Source of the DNA: a virus
Taxonomy: Duplodnaviria > Heunggongvirae > Uroviricota > Caudoviricetes
IMG/VR virus record: IMGVR_UViG_3300045988_149737
Strand: one strand, 5' to 3'
DNA: 64,000 bases
The notes below the pieces were generated by a model, which had not been told where the DNA came from, searched no databases, and saw nothing but the letters and a program-made list of their open reading frames with translations. The first letter of the stretch is position 1. The number at the start of each line of letters is the position of its first letter. Shown here piece after piece: positions 21,064 through 30,030 of this stretch. The translations under genes and the position numbers were made by a program.

Positions 21064-21716
21064 TGACCACCGTTAACAATAAGAAATGCTACCCAAGCGA
21101 GAAATATCTTAATGAGCTGATCACCAACATTGAGTTTGCTGCAAGGGCACCAGTTGAAGTCGTGAGAGCGATTGCAGCAGAGCTACAGAAGCACCGTAAG
21201 GCCTATGCCAATACAGCCGCATCTAAGGATGGTTGGATAAGCTGTAGTGAGCGAATGCCTGTAATTGGCGAGCTAAATTGGAGAACTAGTTTTCCTTTAC
21301 TGGTTACGTGTGAGATCGGCGTTATACCTGCTTATTACGGCTTTGTGAGCGTTAATGGTGATAGGCATTATGGCTTTATGGAGAGTCTTAAATACGGAGA
21401 CGATAACGGCAACCATCCTCAAACTAATGAATATGGTCTGATTAGCAATGTCACACACTGGATGCCACTACCAGAACGCCGCAGGAGTCGAACAGTGAAT
21501 AATGCAGAGTTATTTCAGAAAATATCGGCTCTCGCGACTGAATGCCACGCTATAGCATCTGAGCTTGATGTTGGCGATGAACGAACCGAGATGTTCGAAA
21601 TATACAGTGTGCTGCGCAATCTCTGTCGGCGTGGCTACGCCACTCAAGTAGGGCGAATGACTAACCCACTACTCTCATCCTGTGATGAGGATGATTCGGA
21701 TGAGGATGACGAATGA
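21063..21716 (+). CDS. hypothetical protein with acidic C-terminal tail
   Basis: 217 aa ending CDEDDSDEDDE. Confidence 0.5.
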   Translation: MTTVNNKKCYPSEKYLNELITNIEFAARAPVEVVRAIAAELQKHRKAYANTAASKDGWISCSERMPVIGELNWRTSFPLLVTCEIGVIPAYYGFVSVNGDRHYGFMESLKYGDDNGNHPQTNEYGLISNVTHWMPLPERRRSRTVNNAELFQKISALATECHAIASELDVGDERTEMFEIYSVLRNLCRRGYATQVGRMTNPLLSSCDEDDSDEDDE

Positions 21717-22378
21717 TGCATAAATCAGTAGCCGGTGAGTTTCAGAAGGAAGTCGATAATACTACCGTTCTATTGGACGATATTTTAAGCATTCTCGCGC
21801 TTCTTGAGGCTGGCGATTGGTCAGAACATTGCACTAAAACAGAGCTAGGCGGTCGGCTTGAAAGAGAGATTACACGACTTATTGGTGATGCGCAGGAAGC
21901 TACAGTCACTAGTTATGAGTTAATCGCTGAAGCCTGGCGTTTGATGGATGGACAAGATCCTAAAACCAGCGATTGGCATAGCAAGGCTTCGAAGTATTTA
22001 AATTCCGATAGGGTAGAAAAAGTTGATGATGTGAAACCGAAGCCAGTAGACCACGGTTTCCGCGATAACTGCGAATGCTCTAGTTGCCAGACCACGGCCC
22101 GTATTTGTTCTGAATTGACAGATAAGTCCAGCCTAATCTACGAAGTTAATGTAGGCGGTAATACATGGGTCGAATGCACAAGAGCTGCATACGTAAGAGC
22201 AAAAGACAAGGGTGAATTAACCAGAGTTGTTACCAATCACCCAAATAATGAGCTTAAAGATCACCAGATTCGAGAACTGGTGAACGAGTTGAGAGATATT
22301 GCGGTTCAGTACCACGGAACGCAGCAATTGCGGGAGAAGATTGCCAGAGCAGTGAACAACTCAGTCCGTAAAAAATAA
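21713..22378 (+). CDS. hypothetical protein
   Basis: 221 aa; contains CECSSCQ cysteine cluster. Confidence 0.5.
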   Translation: MMHKSVAGEFQKEVDNTTVLLDDILSILALLEAGDWSEHCTKTELGGRLEREITRLIGDAQEATVTSYELIAEAWRLMDGQDPKTSDWHSKASKYLNSDRVEKVDDVKPKPVDHGFRDNCECSSCQTTARICSELTDKSSLIYEVNVGGNTWVECTRAAYVRAKDKGELTRVVTNHPNNELKDHQIRELVNELRDIAVQYHGTQQLREKIARAVNNSVRKK

Positions 22379-22820
22379 GCAATAGTACGATAAAGAGGCC
22401 CCATGCTCTTGATGGGGCCTGTAGCAACTAGCGTTATGGACGCTGGTTTACGTACTCAATGATCGCTTTGATAATCGCGAACATCGGCGGCACGATTTTG
22501 AACAGTAAGTTAACCATAACAGGCCTCACTTAGTTTTATCGCGCCTAGCTGCAAATACCTTTGGGCTTGCCTTTGCAGTTGCAATATCTGTAGTCGCCAG
22601 ATACTTACGGCACGATTTCGAGTTAAGGTAAGGTTTTAGAGTCACCAAAAACCTGGACTTAAATCTTCTTTGAGAACAACGATGTTTAGTAAATGGTCAT
22701 TATTACCTGGTATGACCACTCAACGCTTCTTGATGAATCCAGTACATTCGGTTAATCTTAATTCAGTCGCCAGATACTTATGGCTCAGGAACAGAGACGC
22801 AAACTCTGTTTCCTTTTAAA

Positions 22821-22848
22821 AAGCCCAGCCTAGTCAACTGGGCTTTTT
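22821..22848 (+). terminator. rho-independent terminator
   Basis: aagcccag-cctagtcaa-ctgggctt followed by ttttt. Confidence 0.5.
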
Positions 22849-23145
22849 AACGTCTGTTTTTTAACCCAACACACCCTCAATACTGCAACATCAGTGTCTT
22901 GCAACCTAAGATAGTGTCTGTAGGTTCTTCATGCAAGTGCATAACTCAGTGGATAACTCATGAAGGAAAAAGTAGCTTCCGCGCAATTTAGACCAGACAA
23001 GGTCTTCGCAAAAGTCAACGGAAAGAGAAAAATTTGTTAAAAATAACGTTTGTTGGAATTGTATATATTTATGCCTTTCAATAGTTAGCATCTTATTAAC
23101 ATCTTTTTTAAGAGATAGAGTTCAAAAATATATAGCTTCAACATA

Positions 23146-23165
23146 TACTGTATGTATATACAGTG
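23146..23165. promoter_or_regulatory. LexA (SOS) box
   Basis: TACTGTATGTATATACAGTG fits CTGT-N8-ACAG, 17 nt upstream of the UmuD'-like gene. Confidence 0.7.
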
Positions 23166-23181
23166 TTAAGAGGCGAGTATT

Positions 23182-23571
23182 ATGGGCTTCCCTTCTCCTG
23201 CGGCGGATTATGCTGAGAGCCGTATTTCTCTTGATCAGCAGATAATTAGACATCCTTCAGCGACCTACTTCATGAGGGCAGCTGATAGTCATCATCGTGA
23301 GGGAATATTACAGGGTGCATTGCTGGTGGTCGATTCCTCACTTACCCCGGTTGATGGTTCTCTGCTTGTATGCGCTCTGGATGGGGAATATCGCGTAAAA
23401 AGATACCGGAAGTATCCACGTCAGCATCTGGAGGATTTAAGAACCGGTAAGAAGGAAGCATTGCCAAAGGATGACGATGGATGCACGGGCAGCAATGCCG
23501 TGTTTGGTGTGATCACTCACATTATCAACGACGCAAGAAGTGGCGAGTTTGATGATTGTCCCGTGATGTAG
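23182..23571 (+). CDS. UmuD'-like peptidase S24 protein (HumD-like, lacks N-terminal arm)
   Basis: 129 aa; begins MGFPSPAADY, i.e. at the position of the UmuD Cys-Gly self-cleavage site; Ser (AADSH) and Lys (VKR) at the catalytic dyad positions; SOS box upstream; no umuC-like gene follows. Confidence 0.75.
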   Translation: MGFPSPAADYAESRISLDQQIIRHPSATYFMRAADSHHREGILQGALLVVDSSLTPVDGSLLVCALDGEYRVKRYRKYPRQHLEDLRTGKKEALPKDDDGCTGSNAVFGVITHIINDARSGEFDDCPVM

Positions 23572-23583
23572 GAGAACTGATTA

Positions 23584-23608
23584 GGCGGTGCATTGCACCG
23601 CCTTTTTA
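23584..23608. terminator. bidirectional terminator between UmuD'-like gene and apbC
   Basis: ggcggtgca-t-tgcaccgcc hairpin, T-run on plus strand, A-run before it. Confidence 0.55.
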
Positions 23609-24709
23609 TCACACTGCGCGGAATGCGATTTCGCCAGGTATTACTTCACCTTGCCAATACATTTGGGCAGCAACGCGATCTGCGAGGTCACGATAAATAG
23701 CCGTAAATTCGCTATCTGGACGACTAATAACGGTTGGTGTTCCGTTATCCAGATCTTCACGAAGTGAGATATGAAGTGGCATTTGGCCTAACAACAGCGT
23801 GTTGTATTTCTCGGCCAGTTTCTGTGCGCCACCAGTGCCAAAAATTGGCTCGTGATGACCGCAGTTACTGCAAATATGCACACTCATGTTTTCGACGATA
23901 CCCAGTACCGGCACTTCGACTTTTTCGAACATCACAATGCCTTTCTTCGCATCGATCAGCGCGATGTCTTGCGGCGTAGTTACCACAACCGCACCAGTTA
24001 CAGGAATGTTCTGCGCCAGCGTCAACTGAATATCACCAGTGCCCGGCGGCATATCGAGAACGAGATAGTCCAGATCAGGCCACAGTGTTTCTTGCAACAT
24101 TTGCATCAACGCCTTGCTCGCCATAGGGCCACGCCACACCATCGCGTTGTCGTCAGTGACCAGATAACCAATTGAATTGGTTGCCAGGCCATGAGACATA
24201 ATAGGTGCCATGTGAGTACCGTCTGGTGAGGTTGGACGTTGGTTTTCCGCGCCCAGCATGGTTGGAATTGATGGCCCGTAGATATCGGCATCAAGAATGC
24301 CAACTTTCGCACCTTCAGCGGCTAACGCCAGCGCAAGGTTTACCGCCGTGGAAGATTTACCTACCCCACCCTTGCCTGAGCTGACGGCGATAATGTTCTT
24401 AACGCCATTAATGCCTGGTTGGTTTTTAACGCGCTTCAGCGTGGCAATGTTGTGAGACAGCTTCCAGTCGATAGCCTTTGCACCAGTGATACGGAGCAGA
24501 TCACCACTACATTGCTCTTTCAGGTCTTCAAAAGGCTTATTCCACACGAAAGGCATGATTAGTTCGACATGCAGTGTGTCATCCATCAACGCAACATGGT
24601 GTAACGCTTTAAGCGTAGTCAGGTTGTGTTTCAGGGTTGGGTGCTGAAAATTAGCCAGCGTACCGGCTACCATTGCTCTCAGGGCATCCGGCGATTTGGA
24701 CTCGCTCAT
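23609..24709 (-). CDS. apbC: iron-sulfur cluster carrier ATPase ApbC/Mrp
   Basis: 366 aa; P-loop SSGKGGVGKSS, CxxC (CSNCGH); collinear with my recollection of enterobacterial Mrp; divergent from metG as in E. coli; RBS aggag. Confidence 0.9.
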   Translation of the reverse strand: MSESKSPDALRAMVAGTLANFQHPTLKHNLTTLKALHHVALMDDTLHVELIMPFVWNKPFEDLKEQCSGDLLRITGAKAIDWKLSHNIATLKRVKNQPGINGVKNIIAVSSGKGGVGKSSTAVNLALALAAEGAKVGILDADIYGPSIPTMLGAENQRPTSPDGTHMAPIMSHGLATNSIGYLVTDDNAMVWRGPMASKALMQMLQETLWPDLDYLVLDMPPGTGDIQLTLAQNIPVTGAVVVTTPQDIALIDAKKGIVMFEKVEVPVLGIVENMSVHICSNCGHHEPIFGTGGAQKLAEKYNTLLLGQMPLHISLREDLDNGTPTVISRPDSEFTAIYRDLADRVAAQMYWQGEVIPGEIAFRAV

Positions 24710-24866
24710 CCCGTCTCCTTTATTTTAATTTGCGCAATTGTCGCCTTGTAGTGTACTCCAGCTACGACATTTAATCATTTATGAGAAATGCTGTTATCAC
24801 ATGGCAGACATAAGGCCATTTTGTTACTATCAAGCCCCTTTTCACTACAAAGAAGTAATGCCTACT

Positions 24867-26900
24867 ATGACCCAAGTCGCGAAGAAAATTCTGGTGACGT
24901 GCGCGCTGCCGTACGCTAACGGCTCAATCCACCTCGGCCATATGCTGGAGCACATCCAGGCTGATGTCTGGGTTCGTTACCAGCGAATGCGCGGCCACGA
25001 GGTTAATTTCATCTGTGCCGACGATGCCCACGGTACGCCGATCATGCTGAAAGCACAGCAGCTTGGTATCACACCGGAGCAGATGATTGGCGAAATGAGT
25101 CAGGAACACCAGACTGATTTCGCAGGCTTTAACATCAGCTATGACAACTATCACTCGACGCACAGCGAAGAGAACCGTCAGTTGTCTGAGCTTATCTATA
25201 CTCGCCTGAAAGAGAACGGTTTTATTAAAAACCGCACTATCTCTCAGTTGTACGACCCGGAAAAAGGCATGTTCCTGCCGGATCGTTTTGTAAAAGGCAC
25301 CTGCCCGAAATGTAAAGCGCCAGATCAATACGGCGATAACTGTGAAGTCTGCGGCGCAACATATAGCCCGACTGAATTGATCGAGCCGAAATCGGTGGTT
25401 TCTGGCGCTACCCCGGTAATGCGTGATTCCGAACACTTCTTCTTTGATCTGCCTTCTTTCAGCGAAATGCTGCAGGCATGGACCCGCAGCGGCGCGTTGC
25501 AGGAGCAGGTGGCGAACAAAATGCAGGAATGGTTTGAATCCGGCCTGCAACAGTGGGATATCTCCCGCGATGCGCCTTACTTCGGTTTTGAAATTCCGAA
25601 CGCGCCGGGCAAATATTTCTACGTCTGGCTGGACGCGCCGATTGGCTACATGGGTTCCTTCAAGAATCTGTGCGACAAGCGCGGCGATACCACCAGCTTC
25701 GATGAATACTGGAAGAAAGACTCCACCGCCGAGCTGTACCACTTCATCGGTAAAGATATTGTTTACTTCCACAGCCTGTTCTGGCCTGCCATGCTGGAAG
25801 GCAGCAACTTCCGCAAGCCGACCAACCTGTTTGTTCATGGCTATGTGACGGTGAACGGCGCGAAGATGTCCAAGTCTCGCGGCACGTTCATTAAAGCCAG
25901 CACCTGGCTGAATCATTTTGACGCTGATAGCTTGCGCTACTACTACACCGCGAAACTCTCTTCGCGCATCGATGATATCGACCTGAACCTGGAAGATTTC
26001 GTTCAGCGCGTGAATGCCGATATCGTCAACAAAGTGGTTAACCTGGCCTCCCGTAATGCAGGCTTTATCAACAAGCGTTTTGACGGCGTGCTGGCAAGCG
26101 AACTGGCTGACCCTGAACTGTACAAAACCTTTACCGATGCCGCTGAAGTGATTGGCGAAGCATGGGAAAGCCGCGAATTTGGTAAAGCTATCCGTGAAAT
26201 CATGGCATTGGCTGACCTGGCTAACCGCTATGTCGATGAACAGGCTCCGTGGGTGGTGGCGAAGCAGGAAGGTCGCGATGCCGATCTGCAAGCGATTTGC
26301 TCTATGGGCATTAACCTGTTCCGCGTGCTGATGACGTACCTGAAACCGGTACTGCCGAAACTGACTGAACGTGCGGAAGCGTTCCTGAATACGGAACTGA
26401 CCTGGGATGGTATCCAGCAACCGCTGCTGGCACATAAAGTGAATCCGTTCAAAGCACTGTATAACCGCATCGACATGAAGCAGGTTGAAGCACTGGTGGA
26501 AGCATCCAAAGAAGAAGTGAAAGCCACCGCCGCGCCAGTTACTGGCCCGCTGGCTGATGATCCGATTCAGGAAACCATCACCTTTGACGACTTCGCCAAA
26601 GTTGACCTGCGTGTGGCACTGATTGAAAACGCGGAGTTTGTTGAAGGCTCTGACAAACTGCTGCGTCTGACACTGGATCTCGGTGGTGAAAAGCGTAATG
26701 TCTTCTCCGGCATCCGTTCTGCTTATCCAGACCCACAGGCACTGATTGGTCGTCACACCATTATGGTGGCTAACCTGGCTCCGCGTAAAATGCGCTTCGG
26801 TATCTCCGAAGGCATGGTGATGGCTGCTGGCCCTGGCGGAAAAGACATCTTCCTGTTAAGCCCGGATGCCGGTGCTAAACCAGGCCACCAAGTTAAGTAA
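24867..26900 (+). CDS. metG: methionyl-tRNA synthetase
   Basis: 677 aa from ATG at 24867 ([30 protein letters not shown]); matches E. coli MetG as I recall it; ORF track start at 24738 is an upstream in-frame extension. Confidence 0.95.
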
Positions 26901-26919
26901 CTAAACAATCATTCTTCAC

Positions 26920-26948
26920 AATGCCCGGCAACACGCTGGGCATTTTCA
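26920..26948 (+). terminator. terminator after metG
   Basis: aatgccc-ggcaacacgct-gggcatt followed by ttcat. Confidence 0.45.
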
Positions 26949-27034
26949 TATAGACACAATCCCTCCTGATTTACACAATCCCTAAAACAATTTGTTTTCT
27001 ACCTTTTGTTGATTGAGATAATAAGCCACATAAG

Positions 27035-27048
27035 AAAACAAATTGTTT
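27035..27048. promoter_or_regulatory. operator-like palindrome AAACAA-at-TGTTT (family 1) in a promoter region
   Basis: Lies after TTTTCT(-35)-17 bp-ATAATA(-10); a second copy aaaacaatttgtttt at 26985-26999 overlaps the -35. Confidence 0.45.
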
Positions 27049-27053
27049 AGGAG

Positions 27054-27302
27054 ATGAAGATGTTTGGAACAGCAAAAGAAATCATCGAGAAACTGAAAAA
27101 CTATCCAGAAGACGAACCCTTACTCATGGTTATGTGGCACAAAGAAGATATTGCTGAAGTAAGGACAGATCTCACTGATGAACAATGCGTACAGGTGATG
27201 CAAAAAATCAGACAATGCCATAACGCTGATGTCGGCGTTAATTGGGAGGTTATATCCACTACGGCGAATGAGTTGTTTCCAAACGGGGAGAGGGGATGTT
27301 AA
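27054..27302 (+). CDS. hypothetical small protein
   Basis: 82 aa; RBS aggag; alternative start 27060. Confidence 0.45.
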   Translation: MKMFGTAKEIIEKLKNYPEDEPLLMVMWHKEDIAEVRTDLTDEQCVQVMQKIRQCHNADVGVNWEVISTTANELFPNGERGC

Positions 27303-27595
27303 ATATTACTCAATCCTACCAGGTGGCATTGATCAGTTCATCTCATACATCAGAGGAAGATGCTCGCCGATTCATGATCGCAAGCAATGAGCTGGATTGG
27401 GTTTCACAAATTGAGTACGGTTGCATAGTTCACGCCGGGTTACAGGACGATGACTGGAAAGATAACTTGCGTCGATATGGTATATCCGAGGGCGCGATTT
27501 CGAACATTCAGAAGGTACTTGATGTAGGCTTTGACTCTGTACATTTTGATTGTGGCGCACCGGTCGTTGAAGGGCTTGAGTGCTGGAACTGGTAA
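27296..27595 (+). CDS. hypothetical small protein
   Basis: 99 aa; overlaps upstream stop; RBS ggggagagggg. Confidence 0.45.
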   Translation: MLNITQSYQVALISSSHTSEEDARRFMIASNELDWVSQIEYGCIVHAGLQDDDWKDNLRRYGISEGAISNIQKVLDVGFDSVHFDCGAPVVEGLECWNW

Positions 27596-27699
27596 ATCTG
27601 AAAACATATTCAAACCGTTGATAATGGCGGTCACAATTTGATTCTTTTCTATAAGAATCCGTTGATCGCCACTACCCCCATTCCATACCCGCAATCACA

Positions 27700-28500
27700 T
27701 CCTTAAATTTCAATAAGTTATAGTTGTTTATACAATCAAGAAAACAACTGAATAACAGATCAACGAAACATCAACGCTTTCACCCGATTTGGTCTAAAAA
27801 ATTGACGTTTTCACACATCACTGCTTATACCCGTAATCCCACGCAGCAGATAGCGCCACAGCGTCCAAATTTCACCACAGACGACCCAACACACTACCAA
27901 CAAAAACACACGCTCAAAATCGCTCTCGTTGCGTTACACAACCATATAAACAACTTATTTTCAGGCATAACAAAACAACTAAATAACACATGTGCCATTA
28001 CCAAAAACAACCAACCTCTTTATGGCAGGCTACCGAAAAGACCCACCTCTTCTTCCCAGGCTACCGGACAACCAACCTAACTTTCACAGGCAATCCGAAA
28101 ACATTCATACGCGCGATACCCACGACACGCCATTCCCCAAACAGCGAAGAAACACCAGAATCACTGAAACCCCAACGAAGCCTGTAACCGCAAGGATTCT
28201 CTCAATCCCAAAAGACACGAAACAGAACAATCACGGGAAACGCCATTACCCAATACACGAATAACTACAAAAGCCTTTCACACACTCCAGACAAACAACT
28301 CAAACACAATAACGAAAGGAATCGCCCACCTGCCATTACTCCATACACGGAGAAGAACAATCACCAAAACGACGAGAACACCCCATAGAAGAACCACTGC
28401 AAAACGAACGAAACCACATACACCGACAGAGAGAACAACACACCCAATTCACCAACAGAAATAGTCGCCGTATAGAACATTCTGGAAGGAGTGAGCATTA
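27700..28500. other. ~800-bp non-coding tract with extreme strand compositional skew (A+C-rich, G- and T-poor on plus strand)
   Basis: By eye G is only around 10% on the plus strand; the only ORF (27724-28080) is low-complexity. Confidence 0.6.
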
Positions 28501-28584
28501 ACGCCTATAGAGAGGTTGAAACAGATAAAACACGAAGAAAACACAACATGTATAGCGAAGAAGCCAGGTATGTATAAGTGGGGA

Positions 28585-28615
28585 GGGAAGGAGGGGTGTC
28601 GCCTCCTTTTTCGTA
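28585..28615 (+). terminator. terminator-like hairpin inside the non-coding region
   Basis: aggagg-ggtgtcg-cctcct followed by ttttcg. Confidence 0.4.
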
Positions 28616-28674
28616 TTTATTCAACTCCTGATTTTATCCCCCGTAACACCCCTACGGTCAGCCTTCGGTCCATA

Positions 28675-28815
28675 CAGGGAAAAGGCTGCATCCCGCTACA
28701 GAAACGGCTGGGTTGCCTTCGGGGAACGGCTGGAGGTTTTCAGGGAAACGGTCGAGTTGCCTGTGTGGATTTCGGGAAAAGGCTCGATGCCGGTTCAGGA
28801 ACGGCGGCGTACCGG
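28675..28815. repeat. six tandem ~22-bp iteron-like repeats (core GGGAAA[A/C]GGC)
   Basis: cagggaaaaggctg / cagaaacggctgg / ggggaacggctgg / agggaaacggtcg / gggaaaaggctcg / aggaacggcggcg in head-to-tail order. Confidence 0.65.
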
Positions 28816-29188
28816 TATAGCGTGAGGGAGAGTTGCGGCTACCCACCTGTAATGTGCGGGAAGAAGAGAGGCGCTAACGTGCAGGCGAACTTACTTACCG
28901 CTGGATTCCCTCTGAATGCCCAACTACAGCGTAATTGTGCCAGACAGCCAACGGGTCACAATCGATTTCAGTAGGTTTTCGGGGAGAGGATTATTCTGCC
29001 CACCAGCCACTTTCGGCCACCAAATCAGAATAATGTAAAAAGTGTACTCGGTACTGAACCTGAAAACTCACTGCCAAAACAACATTCACCGGAATAAAAT
29101 CCTTTTTCGCCTTTGCGTTATTGCGATAATAACGCCAACAAGAAAACAACATATTTAGACGTTGTAGAAACGAAGTGAGGATGAAGAG

Positions 29189-29407
29189 ATGATTAAGATG
29201 CCTGTGACGGTTGAGGTGTGGGGCGTGGATTCCCTGGCTGAGTGTCTGGATGCAGTGGGGCCGGAGTTGTACCGCAAGTTGTGGTCGTTCGTCCCGGCAG
29301 AAGGGGAATCGCCCAAAGGGAAGGATATCTGGCACCTGCTGAGTGAAGATGAAAAGCGGGAGCTGGTGGGCGCGGTACACAGCGAGTTCCCGGACGACGA
29401 AGATTAA
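29189..29407 (+). CDS. hypothetical small acidic protein
   Basis: 72 aa; family-1 operator and RBS upstream; hairpin terminator downstream. Confidence 0.45.
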   Translation: MIKMPVTVEVWGVDSLAECLDAVGPELYRKLWSFVPAEGESPKGKDIWHLLSEDEKRELVGAVHSEFPDDED

Positions 29408-29546
29408 GAGTGAGGCCACCAGCACGGTGGCTTTTGTCGCTATTAACCTCCGGGGCAGCGCAGCACCGTAACGATATACTTTGTGGCCGTTTTCTTACTG
29501 GTATTGTTTACGCAATTCAGAAAACATGTTGTTTAAGGATTGCTTT

Positions 29547-29876
29547 ATGTTTGCAAATATCGACATCAACCAAATCAAGAAATTAACTCAAAAAGAGTTT
29601 GATCAGTTTTATGAGTTAGAAGGTTGGTCTTCCACTCTGATCAATTCGCGGTGGGTGCTTGAGCTGATGACTCGTGATGACGCACCTGCTTTGATGATTT
29701 GCGACATGGGTGAAGATGCTGACTTTATGGATATGAGCGAATTTTGTGTGGACACATACAACCGCAGCCAGAAGTACTACTTCACATGCGATAGCGAAAA
29801 TGACGTGATTTCTAAGGTCTATCTTCACCTCGTCCAGCATTGGGACGTTCAGGAGTTTCTTGAGGTATTCGCGTAA
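29547..29876 (+). CDS. hypothetical small protein
   Basis: 109 aa from ATG at 29547 (RBS aagga); promoter and operator upstream; hairpin aagccagc-att-gctggctt downstream. Confidence 0.45.
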   Translation: MFANIDINQIKKLTQKEFDQFYELEGWSSTLINSRWVLELMTRDDAPALMICDMGEDADFMDMSEFCVDTYNRSQKYYFTCDSENDVISKVYLHLVQHWDVQEFLEVFA

Positions 29877-30030
29877 TCCCAACCAAAGCCAGCATTGCTG
29901 GCTTAACTTAATCTGTAGCCGCAGGGAAGAACCTGCATATCGCTCATGCGCCTGATCAATATGCTTTGTAGCCGTTTTCTTACTGGTATTATTTACGCCA
30001 TTGAGAAAACAAGTTGTTTACGGAGTTGTG

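Follow-up and report, generated by a model that had tools for sequence, protein, structure and literature searches.

How do two bacterial housekeeping genes come to lie in the genome of a tailed phage, and what keeps them there? The question is raised by a stretch of 64,000 nucleotides, hereafter the window, from the IMG/VR virus record IMGVR_UViG_3300045988_149737 (Caudoviricetes), in which apbC, coding for an Fe-S cluster carrier ATPase, stands beside metG, coding for methionyl-tRNA synthetase (MetRS). A first-pass annotation, made from the letters alone, had marked positions 22380-26990 as a host-chromosome-like block embedded in a phage backbone and had offered three explanations for it: capture of cargo by a phage or phage-plasmid, a transducing-type recombinant, or an assembly chimera. 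Our comparisons show an old cassette, fixed throughout a phage-plasmid lineage, maintained by strong purifying selection and carried alongside the host's own chromosomal copy of the same genes. Very probably, the window belongs to a phage-plasmid of the SSU5 type holding an old, selected apbC-metG cassette at a cargo hotspot, the pair having been captured once, metG having since undergone conversion, and the dosage of metG playing a part in persistence.

The element and its apbC-metG block

Sequence comparison assigns the window to a phage-plasmid of the SSU5 supergroup, of the Escherichia/Shigella type represented by pSLy3, pECOH89, Cyrano and pWPMR2. Its best megablast matches are the phage Cyrano (96.9%), CMS-2020a, PhiR41_1, pECOH89 and many non-mobilizable plasmids of 105-115 kb. 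On both sides of the cargo the backbone is homologous to those of SSU5, pHCM2, pECOH89 and Cyrano (the matches to SSU5 and pHCM2 being weaker), so phage sequence does continue to the left and to the right of the block, as had been claimed. The same backbone, cassette and junctions are found, at 95-98% identity, in pECOH89 (NC_023916.1), Cyrano (OV696614.1), CMS-2020a, PhiR41_1 and about 190 plasmids of phage-plasmid size in PLSDB, the hosts of these plasmids being Escherichia coli, E. albertii, E. marmotae and Shigella sonnei. Four deposited phage genomes carry the block with its junctions, as do 200 of 5,426 complete E. coli genomes, in addition to their chromosomal copy; in strain Esc19 the plasmid copy and the chromosomal copy lie on separate replicons. 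Of the three explanations first offered, it is capture by a phage-plasmid that this recurrence upholds.

One of these relatives, the S. sonnei phage-plasmid pAUSMDU00010534_01 (locus L083), has the same humD-apbC-metG arrangement (humD being the gene to the left of the pair) and the same junctions, with 95.7% identity over the block. Relatives of the pECOH89/Cyrano type differ from the window on the left of humD and beyond the promoter module that follows the cassette, where they have a toprim gene or none, have or lack a DUF1380 gene, and show IS26 insertions. Many independent complete assemblies match positions 22380-27100 from end to end (100%) in one piece, at 97.6% identity, and the closest match to the window allele in any collection is 97.8% identical. 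As described in the literature, pWPMR2 is likewise an SSU5-supergroup phage-plasmid of Escherichia/Shigella with an extra metG, of which type the window allele would be a distinct variant. The annotations of the relatives already name apbC and metG at the matching position; one plasmid record, NZ_CP099888.1, is without a metG annotation. In another, from E. marmotae (NZ_CP146383.1, 166 kb), two separate places match the apbC-metG block, which may relate to the 'multi-copy metG' described in the literature.

Both genes were described in the first-pass annotation as full length and divergently arranged, and both are, according to the list of open reading frames (ORFs) and to NCBIfam equivalog models, each applied with its own cut-off. 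apbC (also called mrp; 23609-24709, minus strand) codes for 366 amino acids in an allele proper to the phage-plasmid lineage and scores 756.5 bits against the ApbC model NF008669.0 (cut-off 348). metG (24867-26900, plus strand) codes for a full-length MetRS of 677 amino acids, which scores 1019.3 bits against the MetG model NF001100.0 (cut-off 587) over residues 4-677 and also matches the Pfam families tRNA-synt_1g, Anticodon_3 and tRNA_bind. Its actual start codon is the ATG at 24867, in register with that of K-12, and the TTG at 24738, which would give an ORF of 720 amino acids, is an upstream extension. The signatures of a MetRS are all present (HIGH, as HLGH, KMSKS, the zinc-knuckle cysteines and the C-terminal tRNA-binding domain), the motif stretches being those of K-12 except for one Ser-to-Ala change at position 151, in the zinc-knuckle stretch. 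Aligned with its K-12 counterpart, ApbC keeps the deviant Walker A motif GKGGVGKS and the CxxC motif CSNCG. The G+C content of the apbC-metG block (51.15%, against a window mean of 46.7% with a standard deviation of 2.2%) is the highest among all windows of the same size, in agreement with the contrast that had been noticed by eye.

All 5,426 complete E. coli genomes have the apbC-metG locus on the chromosome, with an identity to the block in the window of about 89.5%. Measured against K-12, DNA identity is 93.2% for metG and 81.8% for apbC, while protein identity is 98.5% for MetRS (667/677) and 95% for ApbC (346/365); among species representatives the highest values are 94.8% (metG) and 83.9% (apbC). 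The earlier claim of near-identity with E. coli therefore stands for the proteins and falls for the DNA: in nucleotides these are divergent homologues of a phage lineage, an outcome the first-pass annotation had opposed to its own proposal, while their products are still nearly those of the host. The extent given to the block was also too generous, since chromosomal homology takes in only the two coding sequences and part of the spacer between them (about 23613-26900), ending at both stop codons. Beyond the stop codons, the short flanks have no match in 81 chromosomal loci from Escherichia, Citrobacter, Salmonella, Enterobacter, Klebsiella, Kluyvera and others, and a donor search among the 80 best species-representative loci returned none with an ApbC more than 95% identical or with homology to the cassette flanks. 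The chromosomal loci of Escherichia, Citrobacter and Salmonella have the same genes in the same divergent arrangement with a homologous spacer, but their flanks are unrelated to those in the window, and the ApbC of the window and its lineage differs from theirs by a deletion of three N-terminal codons and by 16 fixed, lineage-specific substitutions. Among the chromosomal records, CP170191.1 (labelled Enterobacter hormaechei B56) has apbC-metG identities exactly those of E. coli K-12, and a record labelled Vagococcus sp. WN89Y also carries an Enterobacteriaceae apbC-metG locus; both are probably mislabelled or contaminated assemblies.

That phage-plasmids carry apbC and metG is already known, the cargo being annotated in hundreds of public records and published together with its link to persistence. 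Possibly unreported are the differing ancestries of apbC and metG, the tracts of conversion in common with host alleles, and the hotspot with ydfZ, DUF4145 and, beside apbC, der; these details are of modest evolutionary interest and leave the classification unchanged. The locus also serves as an example of how cargo can be told from contamination or a chimera, by host-like proteins, DNA divergence of about 10%, homology that ends at the stop codons, and junctions that return in hundreds of independent assemblies.

Selection and the discordant histories of apbC and metG

Comparisons within the lineage were made among eight phage-plasmid alleles, in all of which (8/8) both ORFs are intact. Synonymous divergence (dS) among them is 0.09-0.29 and the ratio of nonsynonymous to synonymous divergence (omega) 0.005-0.03 for both genes, and apbC and metG are therefore kept by strong purifying selection; for apbC taken separately, omega is 0.014-0.029 over dS of up to 0.24. 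With 98.5% identity to the K-12 enzyme and omega this low, the MetRS of the phage-plasmid is presumably active in aminoacylation.

Set against Escherichia chromosomes, the two genes tell different stories. The dS of metG is 0.25-0.37, the depth of differences between Escherichia species, whereas that of apbC is 1.1-1.7 (nonsynonymous divergence, dN, 0.035-0.04), the depth separating E. coli from Citrobacter or Salmonella. The ratio of apbC dS to metG dS is 3.8-7.2 between phage-plasmids and Escherichia, against 1.2-2.1 for pairs of chromosomes. In neighbour-joining trees the phage-plasmid apbC sequences form a single long-branched clade outside all sampled Escherichia chromosomes (200/200 bootstraps), whereas the metG sequences are nested inside Escherichia (200/200 bootstraps) and are monophyletic in just 23 of the 200. 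The step in identity between the genes falls within the divergent promoter spacer (24710-24866): compared with chromosomal loci, its left 110 nt or so are of the Citrobacter/Salmonella type, and the last 47 nt or so before the metG ATG (24820-24866) are Escherichia-like. G+C content at third codon positions (GC3) follows the same division, being lowered in apbC (0.52, against 0.61 in Escherichia) and practically unchanged in metG (0.61 against 0.62). In the alignment of alleles no residue of MetRS is specific to the phage-plasmid lineage.

Exact tracts shared between phage-plasmid and chromosomal metG point to exchange with host alleles. With E. ruysiae, pM-199-4197 has a tract of 527 nt in common and pMTY18530-3 one of 257 nt; the S. 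sonnei plasmid shares 344 nt with K-12 (each p<0.002 by codon permutation). The longest exact metG tract between chromosomes of different species is 176 nt. Within the lineage the ratio of apbC dS to metG dS is inverted (0.70, against 1.64 in Escherichia), as expected if imports inflate the diversity of metG. One small patch was also found in the apbC of the window, where 77 nt (24126-24202) are those of the E. ruysiae chromosomal apbC (p<0.002, codon permutation); across it, identity to Escherichia goes up and identity to other phage-plasmids goes down, and it is likely to be a small gene-conversion patch.

Cargo site, origin and function

The cassette that has been swapped into the backbone can be delimited by comparison with pBL12EC-1, which has humD but no apbC-metG: backbone homology stops at 23571 and starts again at 26971, leaving 3.4 kb (23572-26970) to the cargo. 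To the left of it, humD (23182-23571, plus strand) codes for a P1-type, UmuD'-like protein of 129 amino acids with the S24 peptidase fold, which scores 219.8 bits against the HumD model NF051876.1 (cut-off 120) over 1-129 of 129 residues and, with 87 bits, stays under the cut-off of 110 of the UmuD model. Its DNA is 86-88% identical to the humD of P1, P7, D6 and SJ46. P1 HumD, a LexA-controlled UmuD' analogue, has the same length of 129 amino acids, passes the same equivalog model and likewise has an SOS box in its promoter; unlike in the P1 family, the humD of the window sits in an SSU5-type backbone, and it is unrelated to the chromosomal capture adjoining it. The SOS box, CTGTATGTATATACAG (CTG-N10-CAG, about 23146-23161), overlaps a promoter-like site, TTCAAA-17-TATACT (23121-23149), and its -10 element, and this whole control region (23121-23161, plus strand) belongs to the backbone and not to the cargo. 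The SOS box and the UmuD'-like gene are thus where the first-pass annotation saw them, but we rejected its treatment of them as part of a host-like block, given that they form a P1-type HumD module that occurs independently of apbC-metG. A terminator hairpin after humD (23583-23603, plus strand; nine pairs and a T run) marks the left edge of the swapped cassette; it is missing from the variant of the element that carries der.

On the right, the cargo ends with a hairpin after metG (26921-26949, plus strand; atgcccggc/gctgggcat and a T tract) that we read by eye as a terminator. It has no homology in any sampled chromosome and was not listed by the terminator scanner; in relatives its stem is retained through pair-preserving changes. 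Beyond it lies the promoter/operator module of the backbone (26971-27053, plus strand; palindromes at 26984-26998 and 27035-27049), which drives the next small genes and is common to relatives without apbC-metG. The first-pass annotation had named this promoter/operator 'family-1' and described it as dispersed through the window, rightly so, since the operator palindrome AAAACAAnTTGTTTT has 15 matches where 0.66 are expected and is a genuine dispersed motif.

Other elements have other genes at the position of the cassette. In pBL12EC-1 it is occupied by a DUF4145 gene on the minus strand (locus L089, 7035-7778), and in pHCM2, an Enterobacter plasmid and an E. fergusonii plasmid by ydfZ, annotated as a putative selenium delivery protein and also on the minus strand (L092, 5977-6180, in pHCM2; L091, 4678-4881; L090, 6310-6513). 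Because relatives carry ydfZ or DUF4145 at the equivalent position, the site between humD and the conserved promoter/operator module is a recurrent cargo hotspot. The left neighbour of apbC varies among relatives as well. In place of humD, a sub-lineage (NZ_CP146383.1, locus L084, 2271-3743; NZ_CP148383.1; NZ_CP072690.1) has der, for the ribosome-biogenesis GTPase EngA, about 92% identical to the E. coli chromosomal der, with apbC directly to its right. In the E. albertii plasmid p3RM15116 (62 kb; locus L088, 1780-3809), genes for a GNAT acetyltransferase and a polysaccharide deacetylase replace most of humD, of which the last 130 nt or so remain; its size suggests a decayed phage-plasmid that still holds apbC-metG. 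The joint presence of der and metG at the hotspot hints at selection for tuning host translation. Like the 'morons' or hotspot cargo of other SSU5 relatives (ydfZ, DUF4145), the genes in the window would be independently transcribed, and they are host-like and placed between promoter modules of the backbone, where such cargo often lies in reverse; unlike that cargo, they form a pair that includes an essential aminoacyl-tRNA synthetase still recombining with the host copy.

We propose that apbC and metG were captured once, together with their ancestral spacer, from the chromosome of a stem Escherichia or of an unsampled sister lineage. apbC would then have diverged past the reach of homologous recombination, drifting toward the base composition of the phage-plasmid, while the metG coding sequence would have been overwritten repeatedly by recombination with host metG and so have remained a wild-type-like Escherichia MetRS. 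The pair would be expressed independently of the phage, as a moron active in the plasmid-prophage state, a layout suggested by the chromosome-type spacer, which holds no family-1 phage operator, and by the terminator that the cassette has of its own on the right.

In evolution experiments with E. coli, chromosomal metG is a classic target of mutations that give tolerance and a long lag, which makes MetRS activity a plausible lever on dormancy. An extra metG expressed from the plasmid-prophage may, as the literature has it, alter MetRS dosage and so give rise to an antibiotic-tolerant or persister subpopulation favouring the later evolution of resistance. Since MetRS has no lineage-specific residue, such an effect would come about through copy number or expression and not through an altered enzyme. 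According to a summary (PMC12452169) of Tam et al. 2024 (medRxiv 10.1101/2024.10.27.24316207), multidrug-resistant S. sonnei lineages are linked to variable extra copies of metG on a phage-plasmid, and expression of the phage-plasmid metG produces a subpopulation predisposed to third-generation cephalosporin resistance. The phage-plasmid pWPMR2 is placed in clade K of the SSU5 supergroup and is reported to occur also in E. coli CC131, CC23 and CC73 (bioRxiv 10.1101/2025.09.12.675607). An extra metG on a transmissible phage-plasmid has thus been tied in the literature to epidemic multidrug-resistant S. sonnei and to persisters that precede cephalosporin resistance, so that recognition of the cassette in raw sequence would be useful for surveillance.

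Several points weigh against this account of a single old capture followed by conversion of metG and a role in persistence. The divergence of apbC may be due in part to quicker change on the phage-plasmid and not to age (a three-point comparison gives dS branches of 1.02 vs 0.47), and its dS, above 1, is near saturation; for both reasons the capture is not dated. The tracts shared with chromosomal metG do not settle the direction of conversion, and in the metG of the window itself the signal is weak, consisting of a tract of 126 nt (25695-25820) with p=0.008, uncorrected for seven comparisons. A simple consensus scan of the spacer returned no clear metG promoter. The functional claim is second-hand, coming from a citing summary of one preprint, and the retention of apbC is left unexplained by it, though that gene is clearly under selection.

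Two of the explanations first offered, a chimera and a recent pick-up of host DNA, can practically be dismissed, because a divergence of about 10.5% separates the block from all E. coli chromosomes and its junctions recur across independent records. A chimera of phage-plasmid and chromosomal contigs would account for the step in G+C content, but for that alone: identical junctions return in independent complete assemblies, many of which match the whole of 22380-27100 in one piece, the block is some 10% diverged from the chromosomal copy, and Esc19 has both copies on separate replicons. Nearly host-identical proteins and the retention of chromosomal synteny are what a recent, specialised-transduction-type event in this element would leave, and the transducing-type recombinant of the first-pass annotation was of this kind. 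DNA so acquired should, however, be more than 99% identical to its source and reach into flanking chromosomal genes; what is found is 89.5% identity to all 5,426 E. coli chromosomes, at most 94.8% (metG) and 83.9% (apbC) to species representatives, homology that ends at the stop codons, and a block present throughout the lineage, and this candidate was rejected. It is very improbable, too, that there were two captures, an early one of apbC from a distant donor and a later one of metG from Escherichia. The discordance of gene trees and dS would be explained in this way, but the genes are still divergent, as on the chromosome, and still joined by a homologous spacer, the breakpoint lies in that spacer about 47 nt before the metG ATG, the mosaic tracts show homologous exchange, and conversion suffices without a second, precisely placed insertion.

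Little more can be said for a neutral hitchhiker, captured without a selected function and yet to decay. A MetRS without lineage-specific residues is compatible with it, and metG could, through conversion by the chromosomal copy, look as if it were under purifying selection; apbC, however, is almost free of conversion and yet has the low omega given above, no ORF is broken in the eight alleles, and about 190 plasmids have held on to the block among changing neighbours. Less remote, though still unlikely, is that the cargo serves the phage, extra MetRS (and ApbC) aiding lytic translation or buffering attacks on translation, with persistence as a side effect. In its favour are the deposition of several of these elements as phages (Cyrano, PhiR41_1, CMS-2020a), the gain by a sub-lineage of der, another translation-related housekeeping gene, beside apbC, and purifying selection across hosts of four species; the chromosome-type spacer without a family-1 operator, however, fits constitutive, moron-like expression in the plasmid state, and the sole phenotype reported is persistence of the host. 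A benefit to the phage and a persistence role resting on metG dosage are not mutually exclusive.

We put forward more tentatively, as a possibility that falls somewhat short of an even chance, an extension of the single-capture account in which phage-plasmid metG is an open recombination partner of the essential chromosomal metG, overwritten by host alleles and possibly a donor to them, apbC being the unconverted relic of a capture about as old as the Escherichia radiation or older. The element may, on this extension, move as a phage among E. coli, Shigella, E. albertii, E. marmotae and E. ruysiae-like hosts. Should it hold and not already have been published, this would document that a temperate phage-plasmid ferries alleles of an essential aminoacyl-tRNA synthetase from one species to another.

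The right joint and other conserved stretches

The first-pass annotation had drawn attention to an 11-bp direct repeat at the right junction. Both copies of the 11-mer ACACAATCCCT are present on the plus strand, one on the cassette side (26954-26964) and the other in the conserved backbone promoter module (26973-26983), where it belongs to the left arm of a 23-nt inverted repeat, and the joint (26970/26971) falls between them. An exact pair of this kind is not significant alone, at least two matches being found in 31 of 100 shuffles. The second copy is degenerate in other relatives that carry metG, and relatives of the ydfZ type have a single copy. At the left edge of the cassette there is neither a partner of the 11-mer nor a transposase. 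A target-site duplication or transposition scar was considered and rejected, both copies being to the right of the cargo and degenerate in relatives, with no transposase; instead, a short piece of about 19 bp has been duplicated locally, beside the joint.

Directly after the promoter module, a gene of 82 amino acids (27054-27302; DUF1380 in relatives) is present in some carriers of the cassette and absent from others. In carriers without it, a DUF5983-like gene (27296-27595 in the window) follows the module directly, and the presence or absence of the DUF1380 gene is a case of module shuffling at a conserved operator.

An Rfam scan of 21500-30000 gave nothing at E<=1, and no tRNA was found anywhere in the window. 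To the left of the humD promoter, some 750 bp (22380-23120) are non-coding and AT-rich (39% G+C), with no Rfam match; several relatives have a gene with a toprim domain there. Its repeats are of two kinds, direct ones of 20 nt, AGTCGCCAGATACTTA(C/T)GGC, at 22592 and 22765, and others of 14 nt, at 22488 and 22608; one hairpin spans 22396-22420 and another 22816-22850.

To the right of the DUF5983-like gene, about 1.2 kb (27607-28838) are conserved and unannotated, with 58% of positions invariant across six diverse elements of the SSU5 group, pHCM2 included, and with a marked strand asymmetry in composition (A 35%, C 28%, G 18%, T 19%). No Rfam match was found in this stretch, nor a tandem array by Tandem Repeats Finder (TRF) in 27500-29200. 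It is probably non-coding, as it shows no codon periodicity and few of its indels (about 22%) are multiples of three; it may serve as an origin or iteron region, or else give rise to a long RNA. Within it, at 28005-28096, are three degenerate direct repeats of 31 nt.

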